Below are positions 395 through 844 of a DNA stretch of 64,000 bases, piece by piece. This stretch comes from Bacillota bacterium. GTDB lineage: Bacteria; Bacillota; Halanaerobiia; B1SED10-174. The position numbers were made by a program, and so were the translations under genes. How positions within the stretch are numbered: the stretch's first letter is position 1; every line of letters begins with the position of its first letter. The notes below the pieces were generated by a model that searched no databases, was not told the origin of the DNA, and saw nothing but the letters and a program-made list of their open reading frames with translations. Where the stretch lies: the NCBI GenBank assembly GCA_007122335.1, contig SKTZ01000029.1, positions 5,593 through 69,592 of the forward strand, read 5' to 3'.

Positions 395-844
395 TTGAAT
401 TTGGAAGAGAAACTTGCACCAGAATTTTCTTTGCCTGGAACGGATGGTAAGGACCACAGCCTGGAAGATTACAGGGGTAAGAAGATTGTTCTTTACTTTT
501 ACCCCAAAGATAATACCGGGGGCTGAACCAAAGAAGCCATCTCTTTTAGGGATCGGCATCAGGCTCTGGAAGAGCTTAATACCGTAGTACTGGGAGTTAG
601 CAAGGATGGAATGGCTTCTCACCACAGGTTTAGGGATAAATATGACCTACCATTTGTTTTGCTTTCTGATACCGAAAAAGAGGTCCTCCAACGGTACGGG
701 GTTTTAAATGAAAAAGGAGGGACTGTGCGCAGCACTTTTGTAATTGATGAAGAGGGTCTGGTAATTAAAGAATACAGGAAGGTTAAGGTCGAAGGGCATG
801 CCGAAGAAGTTTTAAATTTAATTCGAGATCAGAAGAAGTTTTAA
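395..844 (+). CDS. bcp: Peroxiredoxin (Bcp/PrxQ type) with selenocysteine: in-frame UGA at 524-526 at the peroxidatic Cys position
   Basis: Track ORFs 110..526 and 611..844 are in the same frame and separated only by TGA 524-526. The joined product reads ...[12 protein letters not shown][U]TKEAISFRD...LPFVLLSDTEKEVLQRYGV...FVIDEEGLV. This aligns to the Bcp motif YFYPKxxTPGCTxEA with the TGA exactly at the catalytic Cys. Probable start is TTG 395, with AGGGGG 8 nt upstream. Confidence 0.8.
536..557 (+). promoter_or_regulatory. Candidate SECIS-like hairpin downstream of the peroxiredoxin UGA
   Basis: GCCAUC-UCUUUUAGG-GAU(C)GGC is an imperfect 6-bp stem with one bulge, starting 10 nt after the UGA. 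It is weak and found by eye only. Confidence 0.25.

Follow-up and report, generated by a model that had tools for sequence, protein, structure and literature searches.

A probable selenocysteine-containing Bcp/PrxQ-type peroxiredoxin gene with tandem hairpins 3' of its UGA codon in a soda-lake Bacillota bacterium

Peroxiredoxins (Prx) that carry selenocysteine (Sec) in place of the peroxidatic cysteine (Cys) are a listed family of prokaryotic selenoproteins, Sec-Prx, which belongs to COG1225 (Bcp) and PF00578 and has the motif TxxU (PMC9312934, PMC13188914). The Sargasso Sea data contained 43 of its members (PMC1088965) and a 2006 genome survey 12, including those of the Clostridia Alkaliphilus metalliredigens and Syntrophomonas wolfei, with several Cys-to-Sec conversions inferred (PMC1794560). 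Its members occur in anaerobes and are abundant in metagenomes (PMC9312934, PMC13188914, PMC1794560, PMC1088965). Here, we propose that positions 395 to 844 on the forward strand of a 64,000-nucleotide (nt) stretch from a Bacillota bacterium of the Halanaerobiia (GCA_007122335.1, contig SKTZ01000029.1, positions 5,593 to 69,592; “the window” below) are very probably a genuine Sec-decoded peroxiredoxin gene, here called prx, which is a new, previously unannotated member of the published TxxU Sec-Prx family. An earlier reading, made from the letters of the window without database searches (the sequence-only reading), had called Sec-peroxiredoxins known but rare. The first half of that statement stands, as the family has been catalogued since about 2004-2005; the second does not, given the at least 120 metagenome stretches with TGA at this position that are described below.

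The Sec-Prx described by Kryukov, Zhang and Gladyshev (example WP_011365628.1) share with prx the fold family, the T-x-x-U motif, a peroxidatic Sec and a UGA followed by a hairpin in the coding region. Compared with the common Sec-Prx, the clade of prx has TGG-U rather than TPG-U or TSG-U, is Cys-free, and has a first hairpin without a loop G which is then followed by a G-loop hairpin. The biochemically characterised PrxU of Eubacterium acidaminophilum (Sohling et al. 2001, cited in PMC9312934) likewise has a peroxidatic Sec and comes from a Gram-positive anaerobe, but it represents another subfamily of Prx. Against NF040737, a model of 233 positions, the prx product scores 64 bits (cutoff 270), and it falls short of the model's length by about 80 residues; judged by its sequence, prx is not a PrxU. 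The Cys-type BCP/PrxQ proteins (PDB 5enu, 3drn, 5iiz, and the Clostridium thioredoxin-dependent thiol peroxidases, the Clostridium enzymes being 55-62% identical to prx) have the same PxxxTxxC/U plus Arg set and the same length class, whereas prx has Sec for the peroxidatic Cys, has no resolving Cys at +5 or elsewhere, and shows a deletion of 7 residues ahead of the RSTF Arg when set beside the Cys homologs closest to it. As in the canonical bacterial selenocysteine insertion sequence (SECIS) of the E. coli fdhF type, a stem-loop lies within the coding region of prx directly 3' of the UGA.

Translated from 395 to 844 (+), prx is a single frame of 149 codons whose sole internal stop is TGA 524-526, at codon 44. 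The open reading frame (ORF) list gives ORFs 110..526 and 611..844 in this common frame, and the translation bears out the sequence-only reading that the two are broken only by that TGA. The terminal stop is TAA 842-844 and the protein ends DQKKF. The functional start is TTG 395 and not ATG 110. A Shine-Dalgarno sequence, AAGGGGG (380..386, +), can be read directly 8 nt upstream of the TTG; in the alignment of three orthologous loci AAGGGGGT upstream of the start is invariant, and TTG 395 aligns with the ATG starts of the two orthologs, with the same AAGGGGGT ahead of each. Positions 110-394 are intergenic or antisense to a minus-strand PHP-domain gene. Gene callers do split prx, as had been anticipated: public calls give fragments of 43/73 amino acids and of 75-86 amino acids.

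For profile and structure searches Cys was put in place of the stop. The joined product then matches Pfam PF00578 (AhpC-TSA) with an E-value of 1.1e-39 and 135.7 bits (cutoff 26) over profile positions 4-122 of 124, and it aligns end-to-end with BCP structures, the closest being 5enu_A (1.7e-32), in which the stop lies opposite the peroxidatic Cys. Every PDB match at E<=1e-22 was deposited as a BCP or AhpC/TSA-type peroxiredoxin, and the named homologs of prx carry the label “peroxiredoxin Q/BCP”. The top NCBIfam matches are PrxQ NF053650 (150.3 bits, cutoff 260) and the Bcp-type thiol peroxidase PRK09437/NF006960 (114.9 bits, cutoff 140). Since prx scores under both equivalog cutoffs, it is a BCP-type Prx that neither the Deinococcus PrxQ model nor the E. 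coli Bcp model covers as an equivalog. On these matches prx encodes a full-length Bcp/PrxQ-type peroxiredoxin of the class of about 150 amino acids, in agreement with the sequence-only reading.

The active site reads P37-K-D-N-T41-G-G-U44, that is PxxxTxxU, with TGG-U-T here and TPG-C-T in the homologs. When prx is aligned with its best Cys homologs, which come from Clostridium spp. (55-64% identity), the stop falls in the peroxidatic Cys column, so that the placement of the UGA (524..526, +) at the catalytic Cys, previously proposed from the motif, holds against the Clostridium homologs as well as against the Cys of TPGC in 5enu. Residues P37, T41 and R112, the last within V-R-S-T-F, are invariant in this alignment; the catalytic residues are encoded at 515-517 (T41), 524-526 (U44) and 728-730 (R112), all on the forward strand. 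The usual resolving Cys five residues after U44 had been noted as missing: the residue there is Ile49, and there is no Cys in the whole protein. Among the Cys homologs sampled, 167 of 201 have the +5 Cys and 4 of 201 (2%) have no second Cys, while 23 of the 118 Sec-Bcp sequences listed (19%) are Cys-free, an excess that is only indicative, since the sampling (metagenome loci L081-L200 against genome loci L001-L080 and P0001-P0120) is uneven. The Cys-free state of prx is consistent with a resemblance to the 1-Cys-type minority of BCPs.

Does the organism decode UGA as Sec? Indirect support that it does comes from fdhA in the same window, which has both a UGA and a SECIS with a GGUCU loop. This gene (38092..40779, +) encodes a formate dehydrogenase alpha subunit of 895 amino acids with Sec353; its UGA (39148-39150) lies in HCARL-U-HS and joins ORFs 38092..39150 and 39199..40779, and its domains (Fer2_4, Molybdop_Fe4S4, Molybdopterin, Molydop_binding) are split across the TGA. 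The fdhA SECIS (39145..39203, +) has an upper hairpin, GUAGCC-GGUCU-GGCUAC (39163-39179), with its loop start 18 nt past the UGA, and in a local search it matches Rfam SECIS_3 (RF01989) with 39.1 bits and an E-value of 5.6e-8, under the gathering score of 63. The spacing in E. coli fdhF is about 18 nt. The sequence-only reading had named fdhA as a second selenoprotein gene, and the UGA context and the SECIS_3-like hairpin confirm it. A scan of the window for in-frame TGA codons found protein-level support for prx and fdhA only, the remaining candidates being gene boundaries or non-coding frames. Elsewhere in the window TGA is an ordinary stop, which terminates 6 of 29 well-supported genes including the one immediately after prx, and we therefore take the genetic code to be standard, with no reassignment. 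As a side observation, fdhA is the third gene of a cluster (35827-40779, +) of NuoE-like (2Fe-2S thioredoxin-like), NuoF-like (FMN, 4Fe-4S) and FdhA proteins, which has the appearance of a formate dehydrogenase that is NAD(P)-linked or electron-bifurcating.

Evidence that prx is translated past its UGA comes from its relatives. When the C-terminal ORF of 77 amino acids was used as the query, many public contigs turned out to carry an identical fragment, and two more fragments had 79-80% identity. The same TGA is present on 8 public contigs, each assembled independently from samples of soda-lake sediment, namely three NCBI metagenome-assembled genomes (MAGs; GCA_003554285.1, GCA_003566415.1, GCA_003562295.1), one Joint Genome Institute (JGI) soda-lake sediment metagenome (the JGI metagenomes being SL_9KL/SL_5KL), and four independent SRA (Logan) assemblies. 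It is retained, too, in two related species (L209-L211 and L212) with about 84% amino acid identity over the whole protein, which share with the window the gene order PHP-domain gene, prx, DsrE/YedF-like gene, 81-amino-acid ORF and RecQ-like helicase. No frameshifts or extra stops were found in prx across the three lineages compared. Between these lineages the nonsynonymous divergence (dN) is about 0.10 on both sides of the TGA, omega (dN/dS) is 0.05-0.10 where computable, and the proportion of synonymous differences (pS) is 0.54-0.84 outside the hairpin region, so that synonymous sites are near saturation. A dN of about 0.10 alongside near-saturated synonymous sites indicates that the 100 codons 3' of the TGA are translated and under purifying selection. 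Thus the protein sequence encoded downstream of the TGA is conserved (omega <=0.1 in three lineages, all with TGA), and the decay in close relatives that could have spoken against the sequence-only reading is not seen, both related species being intact.

In the published model of bacterial SECIS (bSECIS) elements the loop has 3-9 nt with G in the first two loop positions, the spacing is 16-37 nt and the minimum free energy (MFE) is <= -7.5 (PMC13188914 Fig. 2A), and some bSECIS elements are known to fall outside this model (PMC13188914). Two hairpins follow the prx UGA on the forward strand. Hairpin A, GCC-AUCUC[U-UUU-A]GGGAU-(C bulge)-GGC (536..557), has its loop start 18 nt past the UGA, as in fdhA, and an MFE of -8.3 kcal/mol (z -3.4, with 0 of 200 shuffles equally stable). 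Hairpin B, (A)GGCUC-U[GGA]A-GAGCU(U) (561..577), has its loop start 41 nt past the UGA and an MFE of -7.1 kcal/mol (z -1.9, or -2.1 to -3.0 across three species in the family-wide comparison). All 14 pairs of the two hairpins are intact in the three species, with one compensatory and two compatible one-sided changes: hairpin A keeps 8 of 8 pairs, with a compensatory change of A539-U553 to G-C and one U-G to U-A change, and hairpin B keeps 6 of 6, with one G-U to A-U change. The loop of hairpin A (UUU/UUUUA here, CUUUC and UUUUC in the relatives) is G-free in all three species, and the codons GCU CUG GAA GAG in hairpin B are identical in all three. An alternative 11-base-pair hairpin (541-551 with 564-574), which exposes AUCGGCAUCAGG, was rejected on inspection by hand: the MFE fold is a different one, a loop of 12 nt is too large for the model, and in L209 two of the pairs are lost.

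A number of these and other observations weigh against our reading of the locus. Hairpin A breaks only the G rule of the bSECIS model (its 18 nt and -8.3 kcal/mol fit), and hairpin B, which matches the N1-G-[G/U]-N-N2 loop pattern, lies outside the model in its spacing of 41 nt and, narrowly, in its MFE of -7.1. Neither hairpin thus agrees with every rule, and the prx SECIS is not a textbook one. Rfam returned no SECIS or other family for positions 500-640, even at E<=10; its bacterial SECIS models appear to be gene-family specific, with fdhA as the sole SECIS match in the window. The covariation comes from three sequences only and its score is reached by 162 of 500 shuffles, and identical synonymous codons are only marginally enriched across codons 45-62 (9/15 versus 33/95, p=0.058). 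Finally, no selA, selB, selD or tRNA-Sec gene (selC) was found within the 64-kb window.

A comparison across the family places the hairpins in context. Metagenome contigs were scanned with the TGA-specific pattern F-Y-P-K-D-x-T-x-x-TGA-T-x-E, which gave at least 120 stretches, and nearly all of the listed matches read through to full-length Bcp proteins; among genome loci, 1 of 80 has the TGA (L018, from an uncultured Clostridia MAG). The Sec set consists of 121 distinct sequences with TGA at this position, drawn from the listed metagenome loci, L018 and the clade of prx itself. The 26 nt from +7 to +32 have a mean z of -2.05 in the 121 Sec forms listed versus -0.14 in 82 Cys forms (Mann-Whitney p=2.8e-14). 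Since this region is structured in Sec and not in Cys forms, the SECIS of the family has its positional homolog in hairpin A. The region of hairpin B has, family-wide, a z of -0.38 in Sec and -0.38 in Cys forms. As a separate observation, three metagenome contigs (L183, L190, L195) hold two different Sec-Bcp genes each; in L190 (TGAs at 387 and 4154) and L195 (2789 and 4366) the paired TGAs are 1.6-3.8 kb apart.

The first hairpin has a loop G within the initial two positions in 74 of the 121 Sec forms listed, typically as G-GUU-C at +18. Of the 25 listed matches whose first loop contains no G, 18 have a second hairpin that is strong and opens its loop with G, at +39 to +42, versus 17 of the 74 with the loop G. 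Most of those 18 come from one clade marked by PRFEG/PRFGE (FPRFEG/FPRFGE), which comprises L081, L083, L084, L087, L088, L094, L110, L116, L117, L185 and others, and the association therefore rests on few independent lineages. In this clade the second hairpin, CCCUCG-GUU-CGAGGG at about 39 nt past the UGA, alternates with CCCCG-GUU-CGGGG, a compensatory U-A to C-G change, and the first hairpin is often without a loop G and U-rich. The two-hairpin layout of prx thus recurs in the PRFEG/PRFGE clade, which is unrelated to that of prx.

What might the mechanism be? Translation would begin at TTG 395, a SelB.GTP.Sec-tRNASec complex would decode UGA 524-526, and synthesis would end at TAA 842-844 after 149 residues, with the SelB complex recruited by the conserved tandem hairpins at 536-557 and 561-577. 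Going by the chemistry established for Prx, T41 and R112 in the PxxxTxxU pocket would activate the selenolate of Sec44, which would reduce a hydroperoxide and become a selenenic acid. Because prx has no Cys, no intramolecular selenenylsulfide can form and recycling would depend on an external thiol, most likely that of a thioredoxin-type protein, in a “1-Sec” cycle analogous to that of the 1-Cys BCPs. Sec insertion at UGA 524, the reductant and the hairpin contacted by SelB are all three things that we infer.

As to that hairpin, we lean slightly towards the GG loop of hairpin B as the SelB contact, with the folded hairpin A as a 22-nt spacer. Hairpin A is just as long as the surplus in the spacing of hairpin B, for 41-22 leaves 19 nt unpaired, which suggests a folded spacer. 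In its full form, the proposal would be a bipartite SECIS, in which the G-less hairpin lies where the ribosomal mRNA channel opens and acts as the spacer, and the U-GG-A-A loop of hairpin B is the SelB contact at an effective 19 nt; taken as a whole we offer it tentatively and consider it rather doubtful.

Granted a real Sec gene, a rival to this explanation is that hairpin A alone is the SECIS despite its U-rich loop, and that hairpin B is incidental (a result of conserved ALEEL coding) or has some other role; we regard this as a serious candidate, though with somewhat less than an even chance. Hairpin A agrees precisely in its spacing (18 nt) with the same genome's fdhA SECIS, and also with the roughly 18 nt of E. 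coli fdhF, occupies the place of the hairpin that separates Sec from Cys forms, and contains the only compensatory change, while the hairpin B region is equally structured in both forms; moreover, a review notes a subset of bSECIS elements that do not fit the model (PMC13188914). Yet its loop is without G in all three species, whereas fdhA of the same organism has GGUCU, and the preference for a G-first second hairpin where the first loop has no G (18/25 versus 17/74), along with the compensatory U-A to C-G change in the second hairpin of the PRFEG clade, also speaks against hairpin A alone.

Read-through of the UGA without Sec, by near-cognate Cys or Trp insertion or by suppression, would yield a Cys or Trp protein or mostly a 43-amino-acid peptide, and we consider it improbable. 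Read-through can be promoted by a stable hairpin alone if it lies just 3' of a stop codon, and hairpin A has none of the loop G thought necessary for SelB recognition. However, the organism has a Sec system, as judged from fdhA, the site is that of a redox-active residue, and hairpin B has a canonical G-G loop. In addition, TGA is present at the same position in the 121 distinct related sequences listed, in a family of which Sec members have been published (PMC1088965, PMC9312934), and with Trp as the peroxidatic residue the enzyme would be inactive, which cannot be reconciled with the purifying selection observed.

Even less probable is a pseudogene, that is a Cys-type bcp killed by a TGY-to-TGA nonsense mutation with its downstream part untranslated. 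Such a view draws on the fragments that are all the gene callers report, on hairpins that fall short of the bSECIS model, and on the nearest full-length relatives, which are Cys forms at about 60% identity in a large protein database as against 51-55% for the nearest sampled Sec forms outside the clade, a comparison between databases of such unequal size that no conclusion on an independent Cys-to-Sec origin of prx follows. It is contradicted by the retention of the TGA in three species, by the 100 downstream codons being as constrained as the upstream ones (dN about 0.10, omega <=0.1) and free of frameshifts and extra stops, by the position of the invariant catalytic Arg112 downstream of the TGA, and by conserved hairpins exactly where the family has its SECIS. 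That the TGA is an assembly or sequencing artefact for TGC or TGT has nothing specific in its favour beyond a generic concern over single metagenomic TGA codons (PMC1976440), and it is refuted by the identical TGA in 8 assemblies or samples and in two diverged species.

The prx gene is followed on the same strand, after 27-42 nt, by a YedF-like selenium-metabolism gene (872..1225, +; public calls start at 887 and give 112 amino acids). Its product scores 130.8 bits (cutoff 110) on NCBIfam TIGR03527 (“sulfurtransferase-like selenium metabolism protein YedF”) and matches Pfam DsrE; it covers only TIGR03527 positions 85-194, the DsrE-like C-terminal half, without the N-terminal SirA/TusA-like half. 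The Cys in IFCTG and the CGTC motif are conserved in the three species, and the gene is syntenic in L209 and L212. From these motifs, the CGTC-bearing YedF-like protein could be a redox partner of the Cys-free Sec-peroxiredoxin. A tblastn search over 212 loci found this neighbour only in the clade of prx itself, which makes it lineage synteny rather than a family-wide association. The next ORF (1225..1470, +, from the ORF list) encodes a small protein of 81 amino acids with a hydrophobic N-terminus and is translationally coupled to the YedF-like gene via TGATG, in which it overlaps the YedF-like stop by one base. The protein has 85% and 69% identity to its counterparts in the two related species, its C-terminal half RADEYIRDMKGRLKKKYPGKSEQWYLEKILSDLERGR is very conserved, and it has no confident family match in Pfam or NCBIfam. 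A consensus scan found an intrinsic-terminator-like hairpin at 1469..1488 (+), with an 8-bp stem, 5 G-C pairs and then TTTTT, which probably ends an operon of prx, the yedF-like gene and the 81-amino-acid ORF.

Further features of the window bear on its host. A full-length OLE (ornate large extremophilic) RNA lies at 57239-57833 (+) (Rfam RF01071, 495.7 bits, E 2e-142), flanked by a polyprenyl synthetase gene (56283-57209), a 189-amino-acid ORF without a Pfam match (57839-58408), which we take to occupy the place of OapA in the OLE gene context, and dxs (58405-60357). OLE RNA is typical of anaerobic extremophilic Firmicutes, and its presence suggests such a host. A cluster of Mrp/Mnh-type cation/proton antiporter genes (41038-48956, +; MnhE, MrpF, MnhG, MnhB, a 4L-like subunit and at least 2 Proton_antipo_M proteins) fits an alkaliphilic soda-lake origin. 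At 49720-53976 (+) a second NuoE-like/NuoF-like pair is followed by a 691-amino-acid protein with 2Fe-2S, GltD-like 4Fe-4S (Fer4_20), pyridine-nucleotide-disulphide oxidoreductase and 4Fe-4S dicluster domains, possibly a second flavin-based electron-bifurcating module. On the minus strand (16343-19403) there are three adjacent genes, for a DUF2229 “CoA enzyme activase” (16343-17416), a BcrAD/BadFG-type ATPase (17423-18397) and a third ORF (18375-19403). An in-frame TGA between the first two was considered as a Sec codon and set aside, as it looks like an ordinary gene boundary, a stop and then ...MRVTY.

For annotation, our findings mean that prx should be entered as one selenoprotein of 149 amino acids (395..844, +; TTG start, including Sec44), where the public soda-lake MAG assemblies hold fragments only. 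The current understanding of selenoproteins is unchanged by prx, whose sole unusual aspect is the tandem-hairpin SECIS that we put forward purely as a hypothesis. For the “distinct classes of bSECIS”, which appear in reviews without a definition, the tandem hairpins are a concrete case; if true, a bipartite SECIS would be a class outside the 16-37 nt/loop-G model, and pipelines that search for the SECIS first would miss it. With prx the family gains a Cys-free “1-Sec” Bcp, and the share of such forms (19% of the sampled Sec forms against 2% of the sampled Cys forms) is in keeping with the notion that a selenenic acid can do without a resolving Cys for protection. In this OLE-RNA-bearing soda-lake bacterium, selenium would then serve peroxide defence besides formate metabolism.

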